Assembly: GCA_038063915.1 (NCBI GenBank)
Contig: JBBTUE010000004.1
Location: 38,719-102,718 of the forward strand
Source: Patescibacteria group bacterium
GTDB taxonomy: Bacteria > Patescibacteriota > Minisyncoccia > Phycocordibacterales > UBA9973
Direction: 5' to 3'
Length of the DNA stretch: 64,000 nt
Shown: piece after piece, positions 4,466 through 21,538 of the stretch
Layout of the letters: every line of letters starts with the position of its first letter
How positions within the stretch are numbered: the first letter of the stretch is position 1
Program-made: the position numbers and the translations under genes
The notes under the pieces: model-generated
Databases searched by the model: none
What the model was told of the DNA's origin: nothing
Seen by the model: the letters and a program-made list of their open reading frames with translations, nothing else

Positions 4466-5077
4466 ATGAAAAAGATAATCATCCCCATCGTTATTCTATT
4501 TGTCTGTTCACAGCTAAAAGGCCAGGAATCCTATATAAGAAATGAAGGAAGTTTTGTAATTTATAAGGTCCCCACGGATCATGACTTCTTTCTAAGTAGC
4601 AGTTATATAAGGCTCAACAAGAAGCACCCCGAGCTTGGATACTTCGTTGAAATTTCCAGCGACGCTAATGTCGGGTTATATGCTACGGGTTTAGCTTATA
4701 ATATGAAGACCAATCGCCAACTCTCTGTTGAAGGAAGTTTCGGTCCAGAGTTTATAAAAGAAATTAGGACAAAGAAATCTGGTCTCGGCGCTACGGGGCA
4801 TGTCTATCTTTCCAATAAAAAATATCTGGATAGAAAGCAGTGGAAGGTACAAACTTTCTTTCAGTTTCATTATTCAGACATGTCTGGCTGGTGGCATCAG
4901 TTTTACGCAACAATATCTCCATTTAAATGGATTAGTCTGGGTGTACTAAATCAGACCCACAGCGTAAAATTTGGAGGACTGATTCATCTAAATTCCCCTG
5001 GTGGTCTCCGACTCTTCTTTGCTGCTGACGGTAAGAGACAGTGTATCGGCCTTAACATTTCTGGTCAGTTAAAATAA
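4466..5077 (+). CDS. secreted protein, hypothetical
   Basis: N-terminal signal peptide MKKIIIPIVILFVCSQLKGQ. Confidence 0.4.
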   Translation: MKKIIIPIVILFVCSQLKGQESYIRNEGSFVIYKVPTDHDFFLSSSYIRLNKKHPELGYFVEISSDANVGLYATGLAYNMKTNRQLSVEGSFGPEFIKEIRTKKSGLGATGHVYLSNKKYLDRKQWKVQTFFQFHYSDMSGWWHQFYATISPFKWISLGVLNQTHSVKFGGLIHLNSPGGLRLFFAADGKRQCIGLNISGQLK

Positions 5078-5148: not shown

Positions 5149-5592
5149 ATGAGCATGTTGATAGACAACAGAAAGGCCCACTTTAATTACGAAGTTATTG
5201 AGAAATACGAAGCTGGTATTGAATTGTTCGGCTACGAGGTTAAATCCATAAAAGGTGGCAGGGCAATACTTGCTGGCTCGTTTGCTATTGTCCGTGGCGG
5301 GGAAGTGTATTTGATGAATATGCAGATTCCTCCATATCAAGTAGGCAATACCCCAGAGAGCTATGACCCGACTCGAACTCGCAGGCTACTACTCTCCAAG
5401 AAGCAGATACGCGAGATAGCTCCAAGCGACAACATGAAAGGTTTGACACTGGTACCACTATCACTGTATAGTAAGGGACGCCTTATCAAAGTAGAGCTCG
5501 CAGTCGTAAAAGGTAAGAAGAATTATGATAAGCGCGAGACTATAAAGAAACGCGATATTGATCGGGAGATTGATAGAGAGTATAAAAGGTAA
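5149..5592 (+). CDS. smpB: SsrA-binding protein SmpB
   Basis: NRKAHFNYEVIEKYEAGIELFGYEVKSIKGG...YDPTRTRRLLLSKKQIREI...KGLTLVPLSLY...KVELAVVKGKKNYDKRE; full-length match to the SmpB family. Confidence 0.9.
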   Translation: MSMLIDNRKAHFNYEVIEKYEAGIELFGYEVKSIKGGRAILAGSFAIVRGGEVYLMNMQIPPYQVGNTPESYDPTRTRRLLLSKKQIREIAPSDNMKGLTLVPLSLYSKGRLIKVELAVVKGKKNYDKRETIKKRDIDREIDREYKR

Positions 5593-8935: not shown

Positions 8936-9009
8936 CCACCCTTAGCTCAGTTGGTTAGAGCACAGAGCTTATACCTCTGGGGTCCTTGGTTCGAATCCAA
9001 GAGGGTGGA
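8936..9009 (+). tRNA. tRNA-Ile (anticodon UAU)
   Basis: Hand-folded cloverleaf: acceptor ccaccct/agggtgg, D-arm gctc/gagc, anticodon stem cagag/ctctg with loop c-t-TAT-a-c, T-arm cttgg-ttcgaat-ccaag, discriminator A. Confidence 0.8.
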
Positions 9010-9019
9010 CATTCATAGA

Positions 9020-9073
9020 CTTCTCCGAAAAAATCGGTCGCGCGCAAGCGCGCGTCCCATTTTTTCGGAGAAG
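9020..9073. repeat. 54-nt near-perfect palindrome (15-bp outer stem plus inner CGCGCG stem)
   Basis: cttctccgaaaaaat-cggtcgcgcgcaagcgcgcgtccc-attttttcggagaag; the outer arms are exact reverse complements. It sits between tRNA-Ile and the left inverted repeat. Confidence 0.7.
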
Positions 9074-9079
9074 TTCAAA

Positions 9080-9245
9080 CTTGTCCTCTCATTCTAGCAT
9101 TTGCGCGAACCTTTTTCGAGCAGAAAGACCAAGAGAACCAATGAACTCCGCCACGCGCGAGTACGCGCGTCTGCCCTCGCCCACCACACTCTCCATGCAT
9201 ATTTAATTTCGCGGGGGACTCTTTTTGATTTGGTATGGGTGGGGG
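9080..9245 (+). repeat. left copy of a 166-bp inverted repeat (partner at 17007-17172)
   Basis: Hand alignment to the reverse complement of 17007-17172 gives 161/166 identities. The ORF-track entries 9075-9269(-), 9101-9343(+), 16932-17150(-) and 17051-17245(+) encode near-identical peptides because they lie in these copies. Confidence 0.9.
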
Positions 9246-9326: not shown

Positions 9327-11792
9327 ATGGAAGGAATATCTAATAAAGGCATAGAAAAAAAGGACGAAATCCCGAATTTTCACCAAATTTTTGAGGATAG
9401 GTTAAAAATAAAAAAAATAGTAAAGGATGAACTTGGACTTGATTTGGATAATATAAAGGAGAATTCAAATTCCCCTCTATATACTATTTTTGAGAAACAT
9501 TATAAACAGGAGTACGATGAATTAAATGAAAAGGCCAAGCAATTTAAAAAAGAAGATTTTAAAGACAGTGAAGGCAAGGCAAAAACAGAGTTACAAAAAC
9601 AAAAAATAGAATATGAAAAAAGTGGAGCGGAGAATATTCCCCAAATAAATTACGAAAAAATACTTGCGGACAATCCAGGATTAAAAGAAGTTTTAGATAC
9701 AAAAAGTGCTATCTGGGCTTTGAAAGATTTTAGAATGAAGCGAACATTTGAAATTTTAAATCCAAAAATAGGACTAAAGGTTAAAGAGAAAAACGAAAAA
9801 ATGCTTGGAACAATTCAAGCAGGAATAGAAGACAGTTATGATAAATTAGAAAACGAAGATCAAACCCTTGTTCGACAAGCAGAGTTACTGGAAAATAAAC
9901 AAAATTTGAGCGAGAGCGGGCATATCTGTATTGTTCCTTCTGTTGCAAAAGATTTGGAAGCTATTGGAGACAGGATGCTTACAGGCAAGCCCGTATTTCT
10001 TCACGGACCGACTGGTACTGGTAAAACTTCACTTGCTCGCTATGCGGCTGTTCATTTTACGGGCAAAGATTCTGAAATGGTTTTTTGTAACCCGCAAACA
10101 AAAGAATCAAATGTTTGGGGCAAGACAGGCATAAAACCAGCACCAGGGGGAGCGATTGAGACAGTAGAGATTTACGGTCCTCTTGCGAAAGCAATGGTAG
10201 AAGGCAAGACTGTAATTTTCGATGAATTTACAGCTCTACCAAAAGAGCAAATGGTGTTTATAAAAGGTATTTTCAACGCCAAAGTAGGGGATAAGGTAAA
10301 TATTGTTGGTAATGGTATGGTAGAAATACAGCCTGGCTTTCAGATGATTTTTACGGCAAACTTAAAATCTGAAAAAAATCCAGAGAGACAGGATTTACCA
10401 CCAGAAGTCGCTCGTGAATTTGAACAAAATAATATAAAAATCAATTATATAAACAAGGAAGAGTCATACGACGTTATGCTTTCTCGTATGCTGGGTAAAG
10501 ACGGTTCTTTGGATATGTCTTTTTATGATCTTAATACAACATTGCCAAATCTAGCTCGCGTGATGTCAGAAATACAGGAGTCTTATACTAACGCCACAGA
10601 CAAAGAAGTCGCCAGAAAAGCAGGGGCACTCGATGCTTCTGGTAAAGTTCACTCTTTGAAGAAATTTGTAATGACACAAGGTTCTATTGAAGCTATACTT
10701 TCTTCTTGGAATATAGAGAAAAAAATGAAAAGAACAGAAAAATCTTTTGCTGAATTTTTAGATGAAAGATTTAAGACTGCTTTGACTTTTGAAGAGTATT
10801 CAAAAGAAGACAGAATACTAGCGGCTAAGATTTTGGCTTCCCGTGGTTTTTTACTGACATTAACACCGAAAGAGCTTGGCTTGCCCGACGATGTTTTTAC
10901 CTTTAATACCATAAAAGCAATGCGTGGCGCTGATGCAATAGAGGAGCTAAAATTAGAATCTGGTAAAGTAAAACATTTAAATTTAAAAGAAGTTGCCGAA
11001 CTTGACCCCTTTGATAAGAGAGCATTGCTCATGAAGAAACAAGCTGAAGGACTTTTAGAGGGTGAAACTTTTAATAAAGACGAATTTTTGACTGCTTCAA
11101 GCAAAAGATTTAATAAAATTTTTGGTAAACAACCGTCAGCAGAAGTTATAACGACTACTTATAAACAAGAATCCATAAATTTAGATATAGAGAAAAAGCT
11201 CGAAGAATTTATCTCATTCTATCAACAAAGTAAGATAGACTTACCACCAAACTTTGAGAACGACATAAGGGAGATTTGGGATCGGAATGCAAATGATATT
11301 AAAGAAAGCATAGAACAGAATGGTTTTAATGATATTCTTTTGATGCCTGAAAATATGCCTTTGCCCGATCTTCACTCTAAAATGACCGAAGGATATACAG
11401 CTACATATCAAGGCGATAATTTTAAACAAGGGGGCTCGTTTGCAGGTGCCAAAAGTGAGAAAGTGGATAAACCTAGAATAGTTTTGGTTCATAAAACTCA
11501 AAACTTAAAAGACAATCCTGAACTTGCAAAAACCTTTAACATTAAAGGCGAGGATGCAATTAAATCTGAAATTCTAACTCTCGAGGATTACCTAGTTTTC
11601 CAACGAAAGTATTTTAAAGAAACAGGTAAACACTTAGACGAAGACGGTTGGACTTGGCTTGCCACAAAATCGGGCTCTCGTCTCGTCCACGCGGCTTGGT
11701 ATCCGGATGTTGGTCAGGTCGATGTGGATGCCCGTGGTCTCGGCGATCGGCATGGCGATCTCGGCGCTCGCCCTTCCCGCAGTTTCTACTAA
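9327..11792 (+). CDS. DGR target protein 1: N-terminal coiled-coil region, central MoxR/AAA_5-like AAA+ ATPase, C-terminal C-type-lectin-like variable domain (VR1)
   Basis: Walker A FLHGPTGTGKTSLARYAA, Walker B VIFDEFTAL, sensor IFTANL. The C-terminus GWTWLATKSGSRLV...LGARPSRSFY carries VR1. No signal peptide or TM. Confidence 0.85.
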   Translation: MEGISNKGIEKKDEIPNFHQIFEDRLKIKKIVKDELGLDLDNIKENSNSPLYTIFEKHYKQEYDELNEKAKQFKKEDFKDSEGKAKTELQKQKIEYEKSGAENIPQINYEKILADNPGLKEVLDTKSAIWALKDFRMKRTFEILNPKIGLKVKEKNEKMLGTIQAGIEDSYDKLENEDQTLVRQAELLENKQNLSESGHICIVPSVAKDLEAIGDRMLTGKPVFLHGPTGTGKTSLARYAAVHFTGKDSEMVFCNPQTKESNVWGKTGIKPAPGGAIETVEIYGPLAKAMVEGKTVIFDEFTALPKEQMVFIKGIFNAKVGDKVNIVGNGMVEIQPGFQMIFTANLKSEKNPERQDLPPEVAREFEQNNIKINYINKEESYDVMLSRMLGKDGSLDMSFYDLNTTLPNLARVMSEIQESYTNATDKEVARKAGALDASGKVHSLKKFVMTQGSIEAILSSWNIEKKMKRTEKSFAEFLDERFKTALTFEEYSKEDRILAAKILASRGFLLTLTPKELGLPDDVFTFNTIKAMRGADAIEELKLESGKVKHLNLKEVAELDPFDKRALLMKKQAEGLLEGETFNKDEFLTASSKRFNKIFGKQPSAEVITTTYKQESINLDIEKKLEEFISFYQQSKIDLPPNFENDIREIWDRNANDIKESIEQNGFNDILLMPENMPLPDLHSKMTEGYTATYQGDNFKQGGSFAGAKSEKVDKPRIVLVHKTQNLKDNPELAKTFNIKGEDAIKSEILTLEDYLVFQRKYFKETGKHLDEDGWTWLATKSGSRLVHAAWYPDVGQVDVDARGLGDRHGDLGARPSRSFY
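11671..11780 (+). repeat. DGR variable repeat VR1 (last 110 bp of target 1 before the stop)
   Basis: Aligns to TR 12053-12162 with no gaps. There are 16 mismatches, 15 of them at TR adenines (hand-counted). The GC-rich 3' end tctcggcgctcgcccttcccgc is conserved and resembles an IMH (initiation of mutagenic homing) element. Confidence 0.85.
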
Positions 11793-12052
11793 TTAGGTAG
11801 TTTGTAGTTTGGTATTTGTATTTTTTTTATTACTTTTGTTTTGTATTCGATTTTTTTTCTTCGGTTAGTATAACCACAAGCAATTGATTGGTTTACCGAA
11901 GTGCTTGGGATAAGTGAAAGATGGCCTTGTGTCAGATAATTTATTTTATGTAGAAATAAAAAAGAACTGCAGTTTTGTATTGGGGATGTAGCCCTGATTA
12001 ATAGAGTATGGTTTCCAATCTTGATACGGATAATACAAAGCTAAAAGTGGGG

Positions 12053-12162
12053 CGGGCTCTCGTCTCGTCAACGCGAATTGGAATCCGGATGATGGTCAGG
12101 TCAATGTGAATGCCAATGATCTCGACTATCAGAATGACAATCTCGGCGCTCGCCCTTCCCGC
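12053..12162 (+). repeat. DGR template repeat (TR)
   Basis: In the target frame it encodes GSRLVNANWNPDDGQVNVNANDLDYQNDNLGARPSR: AAY (Asn) codons at the positions that vary in the VRs. 24 adenines in 110 bp. Confidence 0.85.
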
Positions 12163-12166
12163 CGTT

Positions 12167-12544
12167 CTAAGTCGAATTTCTCGAATACTTTATCCAACCT
12201 TGGGTCATTTTTCCTATTTCTTGTAGTTTGCTTTCAATATCCAGATAAACTCTTGCTTCTAGTATTTCACAGTTTAAAGAAATTCTAAAAAGTATTTTCA
12301 GAAGCTCTATTTTTGAATTTGCTTGAGCCAAGACTTTTTCTTTTTCATATTTTGATACTTGATTGGCAAACACAAAAAGCTCAATTCCATCTAATATTGT
12401 TCTTTCTATTTTTTCTCCCAATGTGTATCTTTCGTGTTTTGGAAATTTAAAGATGAGTTTATGTGTAACCTCGTAGAGTACAAAGAGTTTTATTACAACC
12501 GGTATTTCTAATTTTGAGAAGTCCTTATGAGTATTGTTATCCAT
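12167..12544 (-). CDS. avd: Avd-like accessory variability determinant (four-helix-bundle / 23S rRNA IVS protein family)
   Basis: EIPVVIKLFVLYEVTHKLIFKFPKHERYTLGEKIERTILDGIELFVFANQVSK matches the DLxVWKKAxxL...FPKxEKYxLxxQIRRAAxSIxxNIAEG pattern of PF05635/bAvd. It is divergent from the RT, its 5' end overlaps the RT start by 18 bp, and its stop abuts the TR end. Confidence 0.7.
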   Translation of the reverse strand: MDNNTHKDFSKLEIPVVIKLFVLYEVTHKLIFKFPKHERYTLGEKIERTILDGIELFVFANQVSKYEKEKVLAQANSKIELLKILFRISLNCEILEARVYLDIESKLQEIGKMTQGWIKYSRNST

Positions 12545-13516
12545 AAAAGTTATGATGAATTATTTAGTCTTAATAATATGATTCTCGCGTGGAGAATTTT
12601 CAGGCGGGGAAAGACAAGAAAAAAAGATGTAATGGATTTTGAAATGCATTTGGAGGATAATATCTTTTCTTTATATAAAGAAGTAAAAAATGATAAATAC
12701 AAGCATTCATCATATACATATTTTCAGATTTTTGATAATAAGAAACGAGATATTTATAAGGCAGAGGTCAGAGATAGGATAATACATCAGATTATTTATG
12801 ATTATCTACTATCTTGCTTTGAACCTACTTTTATAGCGGACTCCTATGCTTCGAGGAAAAATAAAGGACAATATAAAGCTCTTGACACTTTTTGCTATTT
12901 TATAAAACTTGCTAGTAGTGCTGGCAAAGAATGTTTTGTCTTAAAATGTGATGTCAAAAAGTATTTTGACAGTGTAGATCACGATATTTTACTTGTTTTG
13001 ATAAAAGAAAAAGTTTCCTGTGAAAAAACCTTGAAAATAATAAAAGAAGTCATATCAAGTTATCGTTCATCTACTCCACCTCAAAAAGGTATACCCCTAG
13101 GCAGTATTACAAGCCAGATATTTGCCAATATTTATCTTAATGTATTAGACCAATATGTCAAAAAAGAATTGAAATGCAGATTTTATATCAGATACAATGA
13201 TGACCTCGTGGTTGTTTTTGAAAATAAAAAACACATAGTGGGCATCAGAGATAAAATGATTCTTTTTGTGAAAGAAAAGTTATTTTTAGATATACCTATC
13301 CCAAAAACAAGTATAAGAAAAATCAGATGGGGGGTTGATTTTCTCGGATTTGTAATTTTACCTCAAGCTATCTTACTTAGAGACAAAACGAAGAACAAAA
13401 TCTATTCAAATATAAAGAGGAAAAATATACACTCATATCTTTCCCTTTTAAATCATTGTAATTCTCACAATCTAAAAGCAAAGATTCTGTCGATGGAAAA
13501 AACATATAAAATTTGA
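12527..13516 (+). CDS. DGR reverse transcriptase
   Basis: RT motif A KKYFDSVDHDILL, DGR-specific motif B IPLGSITSQIFANIYLNVLDQYVKK, motif C YNDDLVV. It is ~330 aa with no maturase or endonuclease domain. Confidence 0.9.
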   Translation: MSIVIHKSYDELFSLNNMILAWRIFRRGKTRKKDVMDFEMHLEDNIFSLYKEVKNDKYKHSSYTYFQIFDNKKRDIYKAEVRDRIIHQIIYDYLLSCFEPTFIADSYASRKNKGQYKALDTFCYFIKLASSAGKECFVLKCDVKKYFDSVDHDILLVLIKEKVSCEKTLKIIKEVISSYRSSTPPQKGIPLGSITSQIFANIYLNVLDQYVKKELKCRFYIRYNDDLVVVFENKKHIVGIRDKMILFVKEKLFLDIPIPKTSIRKIRWGVDFLGFVILPQAILLRDKTKNKIYSNIKRKNIHSYLSLLNHCNSHNLKAKILSMEKTYKI

Positions 13517-13528
13517 TAGTATGGTGGC

Positions 13529-15496
13529 ATGGAAGGCATATCTATCATTGAAGCAAAAAAGGCCAAAAAAGAAGGCGAAACCACAGAAACAGGCAACCAT
13601 ACTGAAGCCTTTGCCTTTGTTGAGGAAAATCGAGACTTTTTTGAACACCATGCAAAAGGCAAGATAAAAATAGAACAAGCTCCCGAGGGCTTGGACACTT
13701 TTGCTTTTAATTTGGAAAATAACACTATCTATATCAATTCGATGTTTTATGAAAAGCTCGGCTTTTCTAAAGAAAGGACTATCTTCGCCACCTTGCACGA
13801 AATAGAGCATTTTTTAGAAAAAATTCAGATGCTTTCCGAAGACGGAGGAGAGAAAAATTTTGAAAAATACCTCAAGAAGATAGAAACTTCAAAAGCATTT
13901 GGTTTGATGGATAATTGTGTAGCGGATATTCGTGAGAACAGAACCGTAGTTTCCAAAACTAATAAAGGAATGAAGGATTTGGAAGAAAATATTTATAAAG
14001 AAGTTTTATTTCCAGAAACGGATTTTACTGAGTCTCCTCGCCATATACAATTTTGCCAAGCTATATTGCGTGAAGCAAGAGTAGAGGGCGAACAATGCGA
14101 TGTTTCGCCCGAGGTGCGACAGAAACTTGATGAACTTAAAAAAGTAAAAGGACTTATGAATATAATGACGAATCCTGAGACGCCGATGTCGACACGTTTG
14201 AAATTACAAGATAAATATATTTGGCCGAAAGTGGAGGAACTTTTAGAAAAGGATATTGAAGATAAAAAGAATAAGGAAAATAAAGACGAAAACAAGCCAT
14301 CTGATTCCCAAGATAAAAAAACAGGTGAGGGCAAGGACAATAAACCTGGTGAAAAAAATGATGACACTAAAGGTCAAAAAGGTGAGAAAGATGATAAAAA
14401 AGGTCAACAAAAAGGAAAACCTGAAAAAGGCGAGGTAAAGGAAGGTAACCCCAATAAAATTTTTGCTGATGAATATGAGAAAGCAGAAAAAAAAGTTCCC
14501 AACGCTATACCGATCGAAGATATAAAGAAAGCTTTTAAAGAATGGAAGGAAGAAAAACAGAAAAATAGTCCCGACAAAGCAGATGAGGAATATGCTGAAA
14601 AAATAGGTGTTGAAAAGAAAGATTTGCAAGAATACAGGAGGATTGCAGAAGCATTGCAGAAAATCGTGAATCCAGAAACAAATGTGAGTGTAATGGAAGA
14701 GTTAAAAAACCTTTTTTCAAGAATTATTTCCAAAAGACTCAAAGAGAAACTTGCTCCGAAATATCCAGTTGAAGAAGGCGATGAGTTGGCTGACCCTGCT
14801 CAGCTTGTGTCTGATGTAAAATCCGGCAATTTAAGTCCGAAAGTATGGGAAGATACTGAAATTAAGGAGAGAAAAGGCGACAAATTTGGCGAAGTTGAAA
14901 TAACTCTTATATGTGATAGATCGAGTTCTATGACTGATGGTAATGGTCAAAAAGCGGTTGAGCAAAGAAATTCAGCAGTTTTGATGATGGAAGTTTTGAA
15001 AGATTTTGCAGAAATGTGTGATGAGGAGAAAATGAAGGTGGATAAACCACTTCTAGTAAAATCTGAGATATACAGTTTTGCAAGTAGTTCAGAAGATAAG
15101 ACGCCTCTTAAAAAAATGGGGAAAGAACTCGGTGAAGCTGAGAGAATAAATGTTTTAAAAAAGCTTTTTGATTTGCCGGGTTCTACTACTGATTTTAATT
15201 GTTTGGAAGCTATTAACGAAGGACTGGACAATGAAACCAAACAAAAAATTGCAATAGGAGAATTAAAAAAGATAGTTTTTGTGTTTACTGACGGCGGGAG
15301 TGACAGCGTTGCGCGAGTACAAAAGGCCTTGAAAGGTTTGCGAGATGATGGTATAGTAGTGGTCGGTATTGGACTAACAGAAGCGGGAGAACCCGCAAAG
15401 ACAACGTATGCACCAAACGCGCAAGTAGTAAATAATGTTATTGATTTGCCTATTGTTTTAGGTGAATTGTTAAAGGAGCATTTAAAGGATATTTAG
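13529..15496 (+). CDS. vWA-domain protein with an N-terminal HExxH-containing region and a Lys/Glu/Asp-rich linker
   Basis: N-terminal TLHEIEHF. A K/E/D-rich low-complexity stretch lies at about residues 240-330. The C-terminal vWA domain has LICDRSSSMTDG (MIDAS DxSxS) and FVFTDGGSD. Confidence 0.75.
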   Translation: MEGISIIEAKKAKKEGETTETGNHTEAFAFVEENRDFFEHHAKGKIKIEQAPEGLDTFAFNLENNTIYINSMFYEKLGFSKERTIFATLHEIEHFLEKIQMLSEDGGEKNFEKYLKKIETSKAFGLMDNCVADIRENRTVVSKTNKGMKDLEENIYKEVLFPETDFTESPRHIQFCQAILREARVEGEQCDVSPEVRQKLDELKKVKGLMNIMTNPETPMSTRLKLQDKYIWPKVEELLEKDIEDKKNKENKDENKPSDSQDKKTGEGKDNKPGEKNDDTKGQKGEKDDKKGQQKGKPEKGEVKEGNPNKIFADEYEKAEKKVPNAIPIEDIKKAFKEWKEEKQKNSPDKADEEYAEKIGVEKKDLQEYRRIAEALQKIVNPETNVSVMEELKNLFSRIISKRLKEKLAPKYPVEEGDELADPAQLVSDVKSGNLSPKVWEDTEIKERKGDKFGEVEITLICDRSSSMTDGNGQKAVEQRNSAVLMMEVLKDFAEMCDEEKMKVDKPLLVKSEIYSFASSSEDKTPLKKMGKELGEAERINVLKKLFDLPGSTTDFNCLEAINEGLDNETKQKIAIGELKKIVFVFTDGGSDSVARVQKALKGLRDDGIVVVGIGLTEAGEPAKTTYAPNAQVVNNVIDLPIVLGELLKEHLKDI

Positions 15497-15512
15497 TTAT
15501 ACAATACAAAAC

Positions 15513-16481
15513 ATGGAAAACATATCAAAAATGGCAAAAGCCCCAGAAAAGGCAAAGAAACCTGAAAAGTCTCAAGCAGAACTTCGCCAAGCCATAGAAG
15601 AGCGCCTTTTCGGAATGAAAGGAACTATTAAAGGTGTTATGGAGGAATACAAGCAAGCTTTAGAAGAAGAAACATTTCTAGATAAACAAGGCGAAGAAGA
15701 AGGAAACGGAGAAAAAAGAAGGGAAACAATGCAAGCTAAAATAAATGCGTTCCTTGATAAAGCGGAACAAATGAAAACGAAGTTAGATAGCAAAGAAAAA
15801 TTACCTAACTACACAGAATCAATATCTACTAATTACACTCATCCAGATAATAAAGTAGAAAATATCACTTTCTCTCTGGAAGAAAAATTAGAGGAAAATA
15901 TCGCTATCTACAAAAAAACCAAATTAGACTTGCCTCCAGATTTTGAAGATCAAATCAAAGAAATTTGGGAAAATAATATTGATGAAATACAAAAAGCAAT
16001 GCAAGAGAAAGGCTTTGATGAAATGCTTCTCGTACCTGGCAATATCCCCTTAACAGAATTAAATACTAAAATGACGGATGTATATACTGAAACGTGGGAA
16101 GACAGCGACTTCAAATCTGGCGGTTCTTTTACTGGTGCTAAAAGTGAAAATGTAAATAAACCACGTATAGTACTTGCTCACAAAACTCAAAATCTTGAAG
16201 ACAGACCAGAACTCAAGAAAACTTTAAATATAAAAGGTAAGGATGTAAAAAAGGATCAAACATTAACTTTAGAAGACTATCTAATATTTCAAAGAAAATT
16301 CTTTGAAGAAACCGGCAAACATTTGGATGAATCAGGCTGGACTTGGCTTGCCACAAAATCGGGCTCTCGTCTCGTCTACGCGGATTGGTATCCGGGTGGT
16401 GGTCTGGTCGGTGTGGTTGCCGGTGGTCTCGACTTTCAGATTGACAGTCTCGGCGCTCGCCCTTCCCGCAGTTTCTACTAA
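15513..16481 (+). CDS. DGR target protein 2: coiled-coil N-terminus, paralogous C-type-lectin-like variable domain (VR2)
   Basis: The C-terminal ~180 aa (DLPPDFEDQIKEIWENN...GWTWLATKSGSRLV...GARPSRSFY) is paralogous to the target 1 C-terminus. The 30 bp upstream of the VR and ~75 bp of 3' flank are near-identical to the target 1 locus. Confidence 0.8.
   Translation: MENISKMAKAPEKAKKPEKSQAELRQAIEERLFGMKGTIKGVMEEYKQALEEETFLDKQGEEEGNGEKRRETMQAKINAFLDKAEQMKTKLDSKEKLPNYTESISTNYTHPDNKVENITFSLEEKLEENIAIYKKTKLDLPPDFEDQIKEIWENNIDEIQKAMQEKGFDEMLLVPGNIPLTELNTKMTDVYTETWEDSDFKSGGSFTGAKSENVNKPRIVLAHKTQNLEDRPELKKTLNIKGKDVKKDQTLTLEDYLIFQRKFFEETGKHLDESGWTWLATKSGSRLVYADWYPGGGLVGVVAGGLDFQIDSLGARPSRSFY
16360..16469 (+). 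repeat. DGR variable repeat VR2
   Basis: 16 mismatches to the TR, all at TR adenines (hand-counted). It differs from VR1 at many of the same positions. Confidence 0.85.
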
Positions 16482-16539: not shown

Positions 16540-17006
16540 TTTTTTTACCAGGGAGTGATTCTATCGTGCACGCACGGGTGGGTAAGTCCGCGCGTAATCG
16601 CGCGGACTGGGGCAAGCACGAGAGATGTGAGCCTTCGGGCATTACCGCTAGTGGCGTCCATGACTAAAGGATGAGCGCCGAAGAAAAACGAAGTCAGAGA
16701 AATCTAAAAGCGAAAGCGACACACTAAATATAATAATGAAAAGCGTAGAGTGGGGGTGGCGAGGGCGGACTGCTGTAATCAGCAGAGCCCGACCCGGGGA
16801 GAGGAAACTTCCTCTCCCTAAGAGGAAGCGGGCAAATTGCCCGCACAGAGGCACCTAGGCGCGAGTAGCCCTAGCGGTAATGCCCGAGGCGGATGCCGAG
16901 GGTGACACCCCTTTAGTTCGGACATCCTATTTTATAATGAACGAAGGCACCGATGTATTTGGGTTTGAATTCCGCCGCTTCTTCTTAAAAGAAGCCTGAC
17001 CGAGCC
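16540..17006. ncRNA. GC-rich structured non-coding island; candidate structured RNA, family unassigned
   Basis: ~58% GC inside a ~35% GC genome, with no credible ORF. Many hairpins, e.g. gtccgcgcg-taat-cgcgcggac (16590) and a long-range pair ggcattaccgctag(16641)/ctagcggtaatgcc(16876). A G-rich-plus-tetraloop-hairpin motif at 16758 recurs inside the inverted repeat at 17062. Confidence 0.3.
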
Positions 17007-17172
17007 CCCCACCCATATCAAATCAAAAAGAATCCCCCGCGAAATCAAATATGCATGGAGAGTGTGGTGGGCGAGGGCAGACGCGCGTAGTCGCGCGCGG
17101 CGGAGTTCATTGGTTCTCTTGGTCTTTCTGCTCGAAAAAGGTTCGCGCAAATGCTAGAATGAGAGGACAAGC
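17007..17172 (-). repeat. right copy of the 166-bp inverted repeat (partner at 9080-9245)
   Basis: 97% identical to the left copy in inverted orientation. Two of the five differences lie in one hairpin and preserve it: an A-U to G-U change and one loop change. Confidence 0.9.
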
Positions 17173-17271: not shown

Positions 17272-17784
17272 ATGAATTCGGTAGATATGATAAAGATTAG
17301 TCGTGATAAAGGTTTCACACTTATAGAGCTTTTAGTTGTTGTCTCAATAATTAGTTTCCTATCCAGTGTCATATTTTCAACCTTAAACAATGCAAGAGTA
17401 AAAGCTCGAGATTCAGCAAGAATTCAAGATATGCATCAAATGCAACTTGCTTTAGAGCTTTATCGTTCGGCCAATGGAACTTATCCAGTAGGCGGATGGT
17501 TGTATAGTTATGATGCTAGTTGGAATACATTACAAACTGCCCTGACCCCCTATATGAAAACTTTACCAAAAGATCCAAAAAATAGTGCGATTGATCCATG
17601 GTGGACTGGTAATTACACCTATGCATATTATTTTGGTGGTGCATCAAGTTACGATTTAGTGACCCAACTAGAAGATCAAAATAATAAATATAGATGTGAA
17701 CTTAAGCAGTGGATGTTTTATAATGCTGGATCTTCTTGGTGTAGTATAGGTTATAGTAATTATATTTATACAGGCCACCAGTAG
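17272..17784 (+). CDS. type IV pilin-like protein (prepilin-type N-terminal cleavage/methylation domain)
   Basis: KGFTLIELLVVVSIISFLSSVIF class-III signal peptide. Confidence 0.8.
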   Translation: MNSVDMIKISRDKGFTLIELLVVVSIISFLSSVIFSTLNNARVKARDSARIQDMHQMQLALELYRSANGTYPVGGWLYSYDASWNTLQTALTPYMKTLPKDPKNSAIDPWWTGNYTYAYYFGGASSYDLVTQLEDQNNKYRCELKQWMFYNAGSSWCSIGYSNYIYTGHQ

Positions 17785-21253: not shown

Positions 21254-21281
21254 ACTATATAAGTATAGCAGAGTTTTACTG

Positions 21282-21367
21282 CGGAAGCGGTGAGATTCGA
21301 ACTCACGGTCCTTTTTGGGGACGACGGTTTAGTAAACCGTTGATTTAAACCACTCATCCACGCTTCC
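21282..21367 (-). tRNA. type-II (long variable arm) tRNA, Ser-like (G73), apparent anticodon ACU
   Basis: Minus-strand fold: ggaagcg-tg-gatg-agtggtttaa-atc-a-acggt-TTACTAA-accgt-cgtccccaaaaaggacc-gtgag-ttcgaat-ctcac-cgcttcc-g. The anticodon loop places ACT at positions 34-36. Confidence 0.65.
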
Positions 21368-21448: not shown

Positions 21449-21538
21449 GGAGACGTGTCGGAGTGGTCTAACGTACCTCCTTGCTAAGGAGGCAGGCTTT
21501 AATCGGCCTCGTGGGTTCAAATCCCACCGTCTCCGCCA
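21449..21538 (+). tRNA. tRNA-Ser (anticodon GCU), CCA encoded
   Basis: ggagacg...cctcc-ttGCTaa-ggagg-long variable arm-tggg-ttcaaat-ccca-cgtctcc-g-cca; close to E. coli tRNA-Ser. Confidence 0.85.

Follow-up and report, generated by a model that had tools for sequence, protein, structure and literature searches.

A Patescibacteria diversity-generating retroelement targets a lectin-fold MoxR-class ATPase genomically paired with a vWA protein

What kind of protein does a diversity-generating retroelement (DGR) diversify in a candidate phyla radiation (CPR) bacterium, and what is that protein for? Roux et al. 2021 described CPR targets without transmembrane (TM) domains and left open whether these are real non-membrane proteins (PMC8144416), and the cassette analysed here bears on that question of the nature and role of CPR DGR targets. 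It lies in a 64,000-nt stretch of DNA from a Patescibacteria group bacterium (the window; contig JBBTUE010000004.1, assembly GCA_038063915.1), where positions 9327–16481 hold a complete DGR cassette with one template repeat (TR), two variable repeats (VRs) and five closely spaced genes encoding target 1 (T1), Avd, a reverse transcriptase (RT), a von Willebrand factor A (vWA) protein and target 2 (T2). Judged from the sequence, the RT and Avd use the TR to diversify adenine-templated codons at the tips of the lectin folds of T1 and T2. Our analysis suggests that this chromosomal cassette of Paceibacterota type is on balance probably an intracellular two-gene MoxR–vWA machine and not a surface adhesin.

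A complete retroelement with two targets

A 114-nt repeat occurs three times in the cassette, at the end of T1, in an intergenic position and at the end of T2. With the intergenic copy treated as the template, we counted 16 differences in VR1, 15 of them at TR adenines and one a T>G change, and 15 differences in VR2, every one at a TR adenine; with both VRs pooled, 30/31 differences fall at adenines of the TR. The TR holds 24 adenines, and 16 of its codons contain an A (8 of these being AAY), a composition in which adenine mutation cannot create a stop codon and about 1.7e14 protein variants are possible. VR1 and VR2 also differ from each other, as well as from the TR, at A positions, which is the one, indirect sign of possible ongoing mutagenic homing. 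The genes for Avd and the RT overlap by 18 nt at their starts on opposite strands, and the RT carries YNDD together with LGSITSQ, a version of the I/LGxxxSQ motif that is a hallmark of DGR RTs. An adenine-specific TR/VR pair, an RT beside the TR, an Avd protein and VRs placed in a C-terminal C-type-lectin-fold (CLec) domain all match the features that define DGRs. As read from its sequence, the cassette is a complete, active-type DGR with two targets, because the TR/VR differences are adenine-specific and the TR codons are unable to become stops.

Table 1. Positions in the window of the cassette genes, repeats, domains and motifs and of the bracketing inverted repeat.
Feature	Position	Strand	Details
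Left inverted-repeat arm	9080–9245		166 nt; brackets whole cassette
T1	9327–11792	+	821 aa; Pfam AAA_5 at aa 222–348, E 2.7e-12
AAA_5 core of T1 (aa 222–348)	9990–10370	+	Pfam, PDB profile, motifs
T1 Walker A, GPTGTGKT	10005–10028		aa 227–234
T1 GPL motif	10173–10196		helix-2 insert region
T1 Walker B, VIFDEF	10212–10229		aa 296–301
T1 sensor 1, FTANL	10350–10364		aa 342–346
T1 candidate arginine finger, VAREF	10407–10421
T1 beta-hairpin, helices and C-type-lectin/FGE-fold domain	11142–11789	+	~aa 606–821; paralogous to T2 aa ~104–322
VR1	11671–11784	+	variable repeat, T1 3′ end
TR	12053–12166	+	template repeat; repeat comparison; intergenic
Avd	12167–12544	−	125 aa; Pfam bAvd, E 1.8e-15
RT	12527–13516	+	329 aa; Pfam RVT_1, E 7e-23; PADLOC RT, 5e-45
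RT motif LGSITSQ	13097–13117
RT motif YNDD	13193–13204
vWA protein	13529–15496	+	655 aa; Pfam VWA at aa 458–620, E 4.6e-8
HExxH domain of vWA protein (aa ~24–250)	13598–14278	+	motif positions, alignments
HEIEHF	13796–13813		aa 90–95
NxxxDxxxN	within 13910–13942
HxQ	14042–14050
vWA domain with complete MIDAS	14900–15493	+	Pfam VWA, 4.6e-8
MIDAS DxSxS, DRSSSM	14915–14932		aa 463–468
MIDAS T, in GSTTDF	within 15179–15196		aa 551–556
MIDAS D, in FTDGGS	within 15284–15301		aa 586–591
T2	15513–16481	+	322 aa; starts 16 nt past vWA stop codon
VR2	16360–16473	+	variable repeat, T2 3′ end
Right inverted-repeat arm	17006–17171		97% complementary to left arm

T1 joins a MoxR-class ATPase to a lectin-fold domain

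From its N to its C terminus, T1 consists of a poorly conserved, charged region (aa 1–200), an AAA+ module, a conserved middle and the CLec-fold domain that contains VR1. An earlier note on this DNA had described T1 as an AAA+ ATPase of MoxR type fused to a hypervariable lectin-like domain, a description that holds: the Walker A (GPTGTGKT), Walker B (VIFDEF) and sensor (TANL) sequences are all where that note placed them, Pfam recognizes AAA_5, and a profile search of solved structures matches NorQ and CbbQ. Within NCBIfam, T1 matches GvpN (1.7e-8). Its best relative in the Protein Data Bank (PDB) is NorQ (E 1.5e-4 with the single sequence and 3.7e-7 with a 20-sequence profile), followed by CbbQ/NirQ/NorQ (profile 6e-4) and then CbbQ; the alignment with NorQ covers the helix-2 insert region, and the GPL motif is common to both proteins. 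Walker A, Walker B, sensor 1 and an LPPEVAREF arginine region are near-invariant across 20 T1 homologues. From these motifs and alignments, we assign the T1 ATPase to the single-module MoxR-class AAA+ proteins of the CbbQ/NorQ/GvpN kind.

Profile searches of the individual domains, which the earlier note had proposed, recovered AAA_5 and VWA with Pfam, whereas Pfam gave no match to the C-terminal lectin/formylglycine-generating enzyme (FGE) domain of T1. More widely, scans of the N terminus, middle and C terminus of T1 with Pfam, NCBIfam and PADLOC returned no significant match beyond AAA_5. The lectin/FGE fold of the C-terminal domain is confirmed, and the matches to this domain include many animal C-type lectins. 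One further, weak PDB match, of T1 aa 741–798 to 9waq ('VP14465'), was first read as a DGR variable protein and was rejected as a chance match to a Vibrio type VI secretion system immunity protein.

T2 shares this end of T1. Following a charged N-terminal region of ~100 aa, it carries a T1-like pre-CLec and CLec module, and the part common to both targets includes a short hairpin-and-helix region ahead of the lectin domain. T2 itself had no significant match in Pfam, NCBIfam or PADLOC scans.

The targets and the vWA protein are all predicted to be cytoplasmic. None of T1, T2 or the vWA protein has a 19-residue window above 1.14 on the Kyte–Doolittle scale, and no signal peptide, lipobox or TM segment is predicted in any of the three. 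The earlier note had also read T1 as a protein without signal peptide or TM segment. The N termini of the three are all charged, and their open reading frames (ORFs) are not extendable upstream, each already using the earliest start codon that the preceding stop allows.

The partner protein carries HExxH and MIDAS domains

The gene that follows the RT encodes, as the earlier note had recognized, a vWA protein with a metal-ion-dependent adhesion site (MIDAS) and an N-terminal HEIEHF motif. Spacing in this part of the cassette is operon-like, with 12 nt between the RT stop codon and the vWA gene and 16 nt between the vWA gene and T2. The protein begins with the HExxH domain, continues through a variable K/E/G-rich linker (aa ~245–305) and a conserved middle, and ends in the vWA domain with its MIDAS. 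In an alignment of 14 vWA proteins, H90, E91, H94, E97 and the D128–N137 stretch are invariant, as is the MIDAS set D463, S465, S467, T553 and D588, and the K/E/G-rich linker is variable. The family is large, comprising 414 clusters at 90% identity whose members are 60–90% identical over their full length, and all of its sources with a named organism are Patescibacteria.

To characterize the N-terminal domain, we searched its profile against 1.84 billion representative proteins. The search returned 295 clusters, nearly all of like architecture, with most full-length matches 600–750 aa long; 6/10 relatives that we scanned reach Pfam VWA at E<=0.01, and a Pfam-named N-terminal domain was found in 0/10. 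The N terminus of the vWA protein likewise had no significant match in Pfam, NCBIfam or PADLOC, and in a profile search of the PDB only the vWA part of the protein was matched. Across 99 full-length representatives of the HExxH-domain family, the motif residues are strongly conserved (H90 and E91 each 99/99; H94 83/99, with Ala in 15), as are N129 (94/99), D133 (96/99), N137 (89/99), H172 (96/99) and Q174 (99/99). A structural model places three strands before a helix (81–103) that bears the motif and hints weakly at a zincin-like fold, and we regard the domain as a putative peptidase.

ATPase and vWA genes stay together across Patescibacteria

We scanned one genome per species and obtained 28 loci, to which protein look-ups added seven; the window proteins were mapped onto these related loci, and linkage counts were limited to loci with enough flanking DNA. 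ATPase and vWA genes are both present in 14/14 informative Patescibacteria loci, and, seen from the vWA side, each of the 11 loci that extend 3 kb or more upstream of the vWA gene also has an AAA gene (L001, L002, L012, L016, L017, L019, L021, L022, L028, L029 and L030). Three loci found through distant AAA homologues of 43–58% identity (L033, L034 and L035) each include a VWA gene in their cassette; in L034 it stands upstream of the ATPase gene and so in a different order. The usual order is AAA-CLec, an optional T2, TR, Avd on the reverse strand, RT, vWA and T2. This reciprocal synteny supports the earlier note's view of the vWA gene as a true partner of the ATPase. That note had also named three findings that would speak against its proposal, namely an ATPase region unlike AAA+, a signal peptide or TM segment in T1 and a lack of synteny; we checked for each, and none came true.

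The pair persists where the retroelement does not. Four loci (L016, L017, L021 and L032) have no RT or Avd, yet keep AAA-CLec, vWA and T2-like genes. In L019 and L023 the RT is only 37–38% identical to that of the window, and the C-terminal domain of both targets belongs to a different sequence class; both loci nevertheless keep the ATPase and the vWA protein, with identities of 85% for the ATPase and 65% for its partner in L019 and of 68–73% for the vWA protein in L023. L019 has its own TR, with 15/16 TR/VR differences at adenines, and its two VR copies are identical and both contain an in-frame stop codon, which may be an assembly artefact. Comparison of these loci indicates that the stable unit is the ATPase, the vWA protein and the short target, with the retroelement and the class of variable domain exchangeable, and that the HExxH–vWA protein is an obligate genomic partner of the ATPase.

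Identical copies occur in class-B loci (L019 7547–8148 versus 12250–12851; L016 9055–9354 versus 11837–12136). Over hundreds of bases, VR included, identity is 100% either between the short target and the ATPase gene's C-terminal part or between two short targets. They could reflect recent gene conversion or assembly collapse of repeats.

The cassette is conserved like a core locus

The cassette proteins are conserved at about housekeeping level or above, with PrfB, FtsE and RecG among the proteins compared. In L002, a Paceibacterota metagenome-assembled genome syntenic with the window, SmpB, FtsH and RecG are 84, 93 and 80% identical to their window counterparts, compared with 85% for T1, 89% for the vWA protein and 84% for T2. 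In L016 the corresponding values are 54–62% for PrfB and 62% for FtsE versus 82% for the ATPase and 65–70% for the vWA protein, and in L029 they are 59–64% for PrfB, 66% for FtsE and 53% for FtsX versus 71% for the ATPase core and 72–75% for the vWA protein. The neighbours of the cassette vary by genome and are housekeeping genes (ftsH and recG; prfB–ftsEX; pheST and gyrB; gatB and gap). Among viral contigs searched for this vWA family, none carries a member of it. PADLOC-DB 2.0 found no catalogued defence system in the cassette and only generic RT and P-loop matches, the latter to 'mad8' over just aa 209–258 of T1; the vWA protein, Avd and T2 had no PADLOC match. Together, conservation and context are more in keeping with a core function maintained by vertical inheritance than with a typical defence island.

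A proposed intracellular remodeller and competing explanations

How might the two proteins work together? The mechanism that we propose is drawn from the CbbQ–CbbO, NorQ–NorD and midasin paradigms (PMC9976466, PMC13036017) and from general background. T1 would form a hexameric ring displaying six variable lectin-fold domains, and one vWA protein would dock on the ring and grip a client through its MIDAS ion. ATP hydrolysis would then pull on or remodel the client caught by the variable domains, the HExxH domain may cleave it, and T2, which has the pre-CLec module in common with T1, could serve as a second receptor, either free or exchangeable. In such an arrangement the DGR would reprogram the client specificity of an intracellular remodeller, with possible clients including invader proteins and molecules, proteins among them, that are acquired from the host bacterium. 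Two points weigh against an intracellular MoxR–vWA machine: the export routes of Patescibacteria are poorly known, so a missing signal peptide does not prove a cytoplasmic site, and our analysis identified no client or effector output.

The earlier note had leaned towards sensing of phages or other mobile genetic elements, which is also the analogy made by Dore et al. 2024, a proposal that loses ground here and that we consider unlikely, if still the strongest competitor. Under this explanation the variable lectin domain would recognize an invader molecule, the AAA+ module would pass the signal on and the vWA/HExxH protein would act as an effector that cleaves invader or host proteins, possibly aborting infection. 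DGR-diversified MoxR–vWA–VMAP conflict systems provide a precedent (PMC7159879, PMC10907252), every component is predicted to be cytoplasmic, the vWA partner bears a putative peptidase domain, and toxin–antitoxin genes stand in or beside some cassettes (AbiEii in L032 and a nucleotidyltransferase (NTase) pair in L033). Against these stand the generic nature of the PADLOC matches, a Pfam scan of the cassette proteins that revealed no VMAP, trypsin, caspase, TIR or nuclease domain, and neighbours that are housekeeping genes and not defence islands. Conservation equal to or above that of PrfB, FtsE and RecG also departs from what is usual for defence genes, namely rapid turnover and a patchy distribution.

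A widely kept, vertically maintained and organelle-like Paceibacterota 'unfoldase/protease with variable receptors', intracellular and somatically diversifiable, in which an AAA+ ring with substrate receptors programmed by the retroelement and a MIDAS adaptor-protease would let the episymbiont capture and process an open-ended range of foreign proteins, whether host-derived cargo or invaders, seems to us quite doubtful as a full account; if true, it would give DGRs a function apart from adhesion and abortive-infection sensing. Less probable still is attachment to the host or its surface, with T1 and T2 exported non-classically, their lectin domains binding the host bacterium and the AAA+ and vWA proteins serving assembly or export. 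Paul et al. 2017 proposed host-interaction roles for CPR DGRs, as cited by Dore et al. (PMC10907252), and housekeeping-level conservation would suit an obligate function of an episymbiont; vWA domains are often adhesive, and shortly beyond the right inverted-repeat arm there is a gene of type IV pilin-like character (17272–17784), although this neighbour is not conserved at other loci. T1, T2 and the vWA protein all lack a predicted signal peptide, lipobox or TM segment, however, and an ATPase in the same chain as the binding domain requires cytoplasmic ATP. Finally, the synteny data effectively exclude the vWA gene as an unrelated passenger inside a DGR cassette, because its co-occurrence with the ATPase gene is reciprocal and complete in the informative loci and spans 43–90% protein identity, two DGR lineages, RT-less loci and altered gene order, in addition to which the intergenic gaps are 12–16 nt and MoxR-class ATPases characteristically pair with vWA proteins (PMC9976466, PMC13036017).

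Flanking repeats and neighbouring genes

The whole cassette is bracketed by an inverted repeat of 142–200 nt with 96–97% complementarity in the window and in two close relatives (arms at 418–617 and 8186–8385 in L001 and at 5323–5464 and 13314–13455 in L002), which is not present in L022. The arms of L001 have diverged from those of the window with a GC hairpin and long-range pairing kept through apparent compensatory changes. A search of the arms against Rfam gave no match, and the RNAfold z-score is only −1.84; the repeat may represent a structured element of RNA or DNA, or its arms may mark where a mobile or invertible segment ends. The position of the cassette on the chromosome differs between genomes. 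Between T2 and the right arm, window positions 16540–16990 are GC-rich. Short hairpins occur there several times (GCGCG-ATTA-CGCGC, CTGCTG-ATTA-CAGCAG), and after each come GCCCTCGCCACC-like motifs resembling those within the repeat arms; neither a convincing ORF nor an Rfam match was found in this interval.

Directly upstream of the left arm is a tRNA-Ile gene with anticodon TAT (8936–9010), followed by a terminator-like hairpin at ~9021–9070; tRNA-Ile with a UAU anticodon is uncommon in bacteria. About 100 nt past the right arm, the type IV pilin-like gene (+) encodes an N-terminal FTLIELLVV and is not a conserved neighbour at related loci. At 21281–21367 (−), ARAGORN predicts a tRNA-Ser whose anticodon is ACT, which is divergent from the normal tRNA-Ser(GCT) at 21449–21538; a serine tRNA with A34 is unusual. 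A 203-aa ORF at 4466–5077 (+) has a classic N-terminal signal peptide. At related loci, genes of toxin–antitoxin type stand within or directly beside the cassette: DUF6922 and AbiEii in L032 (3850–4727), whose cassette lacks an RT and includes four or five T2-like genes, and an NTase_sub_bind and Polbeta pair in L033 (17621–18294).

Comparison with known systems

Targets of the kind found here are already known from CPR genomes, and the novelty that the earlier note saw in the target type falls away. Citing Paul et al. 2017, Dore et al. 2024 give fusions of an AAA ATPase to a CLec domain as the commonest CPR DGR target architecture, and they suggest that what the C-terminal region senses is relayed as a signal by the ATPase (PMC10907252). 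Wu et al. 2018 reported Midasin-type AAA matches for the CPR VR class 'UVR4', P-loop NTPase 'g1' targets and a 'B3' architecture in 90% of CPR DGRs (PMC5758913). The window shares with these the phylum-level host, an AAA_5/Midasin-type ATPase N-terminal to a C-terminal VR, the absence of a TM segment or signal peptide, and a target, TR, reverse-strand avd and RT order consistent with 'B3'. T1 belongs to this published class, to which our analysis adds structural confirmation of the CLec fold for this VR class and the recognition that the HExxH–vWA partner and a short second target are constant components of the unit, points that we did not find in the searchable literature.

The commonest CPR target type is on this evidence one half of a MoxR–vWA pair, a pair that is kept when the RT is absent or swapped for that of another DGR lineage and that evolves as slowly as core genes. 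The searchable literature (Paul et al. 2017 and Wu et al. 2018 supplements excluded) contains no report of a vWA or HExxH partner in CPR DGR cassettes, and we found no report in the searchable literature of a two-gene design with CLec on the ATPase and HExxH on the vWA protein and without VMAP. The ATPase fusion is already published and the conserved vWA adaptor seemingly unreported, and the adaptor offers a concrete route to testing what the system does.

The closest solved relatives of the ATPase belong to CbbQ–CbbO and NorQ–NorD, which are likewise two-gene systems of an AAA_5 ring and a partner whose C-terminal vWA/MIDAS domain engages the client. Those systems differ in having one fixed client (Rubisco or nitric oxide reductase) and no variable domain, and their ATPases, at ~270 aa, are without the N- and C-terminal extensions of T1. 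We know of no report of an HExxH domain on CbbO or NorD. Midasin/Rea1 likewise has AAA_5 modules and a MIDAS domain together with a linker that is charged and of low complexity, but in a single giant eukaryotic chain with six AAA modules, whereas here the ATPase and MIDAS are on separate proteins and the linker is K/E/G-rich and not D/E-rich.

The nearest DGR-diversified counterparts are the vWA–MoxR–VMAP ternary conflict systems of Kaur et al. 2020 (PMC7159879) and Dore et al. 2024 (PMC10907252). Like the cassette, they combine a MoxR-class ATPase, a vWA–MIDAS protein and a DGR-diversified FGE/CLec domain, with targets mostly predicted to be cytoplasmic. In the window, by contrast, it is the ATPase (and T2) and not the vWA protein that bears the CLec domain, an HExxH domain forms the N-terminal part of the vWA protein instead, and there is no VMAP, no trypsin, caspase or TIR effector and no adaptor (Trypco/EAD) domain. 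The Pfam search for the VMAP family among the cassette proteins found none (bpMoxR scored 16 bits against a cutoff of 27), and no extra conserved gene was seen as a third component in related loci. The host is a reduced-genome Patescibacterium and not a multicellular bacterium, the RT is of the CPR lineage and not of clade 5, and the cassette is conserved at housekeeping level. Lacking a VMAP protein and bearing its CLec domain elsewhere than on the vWA protein, the cassette is not a vWA–MoxR–VMAP ternary system. This combination of MoxR, vWA and DGR differs in design from the ternary systems of multicellular bacteria, which is evidence for more than one origin, or rearrangement, of the combination.

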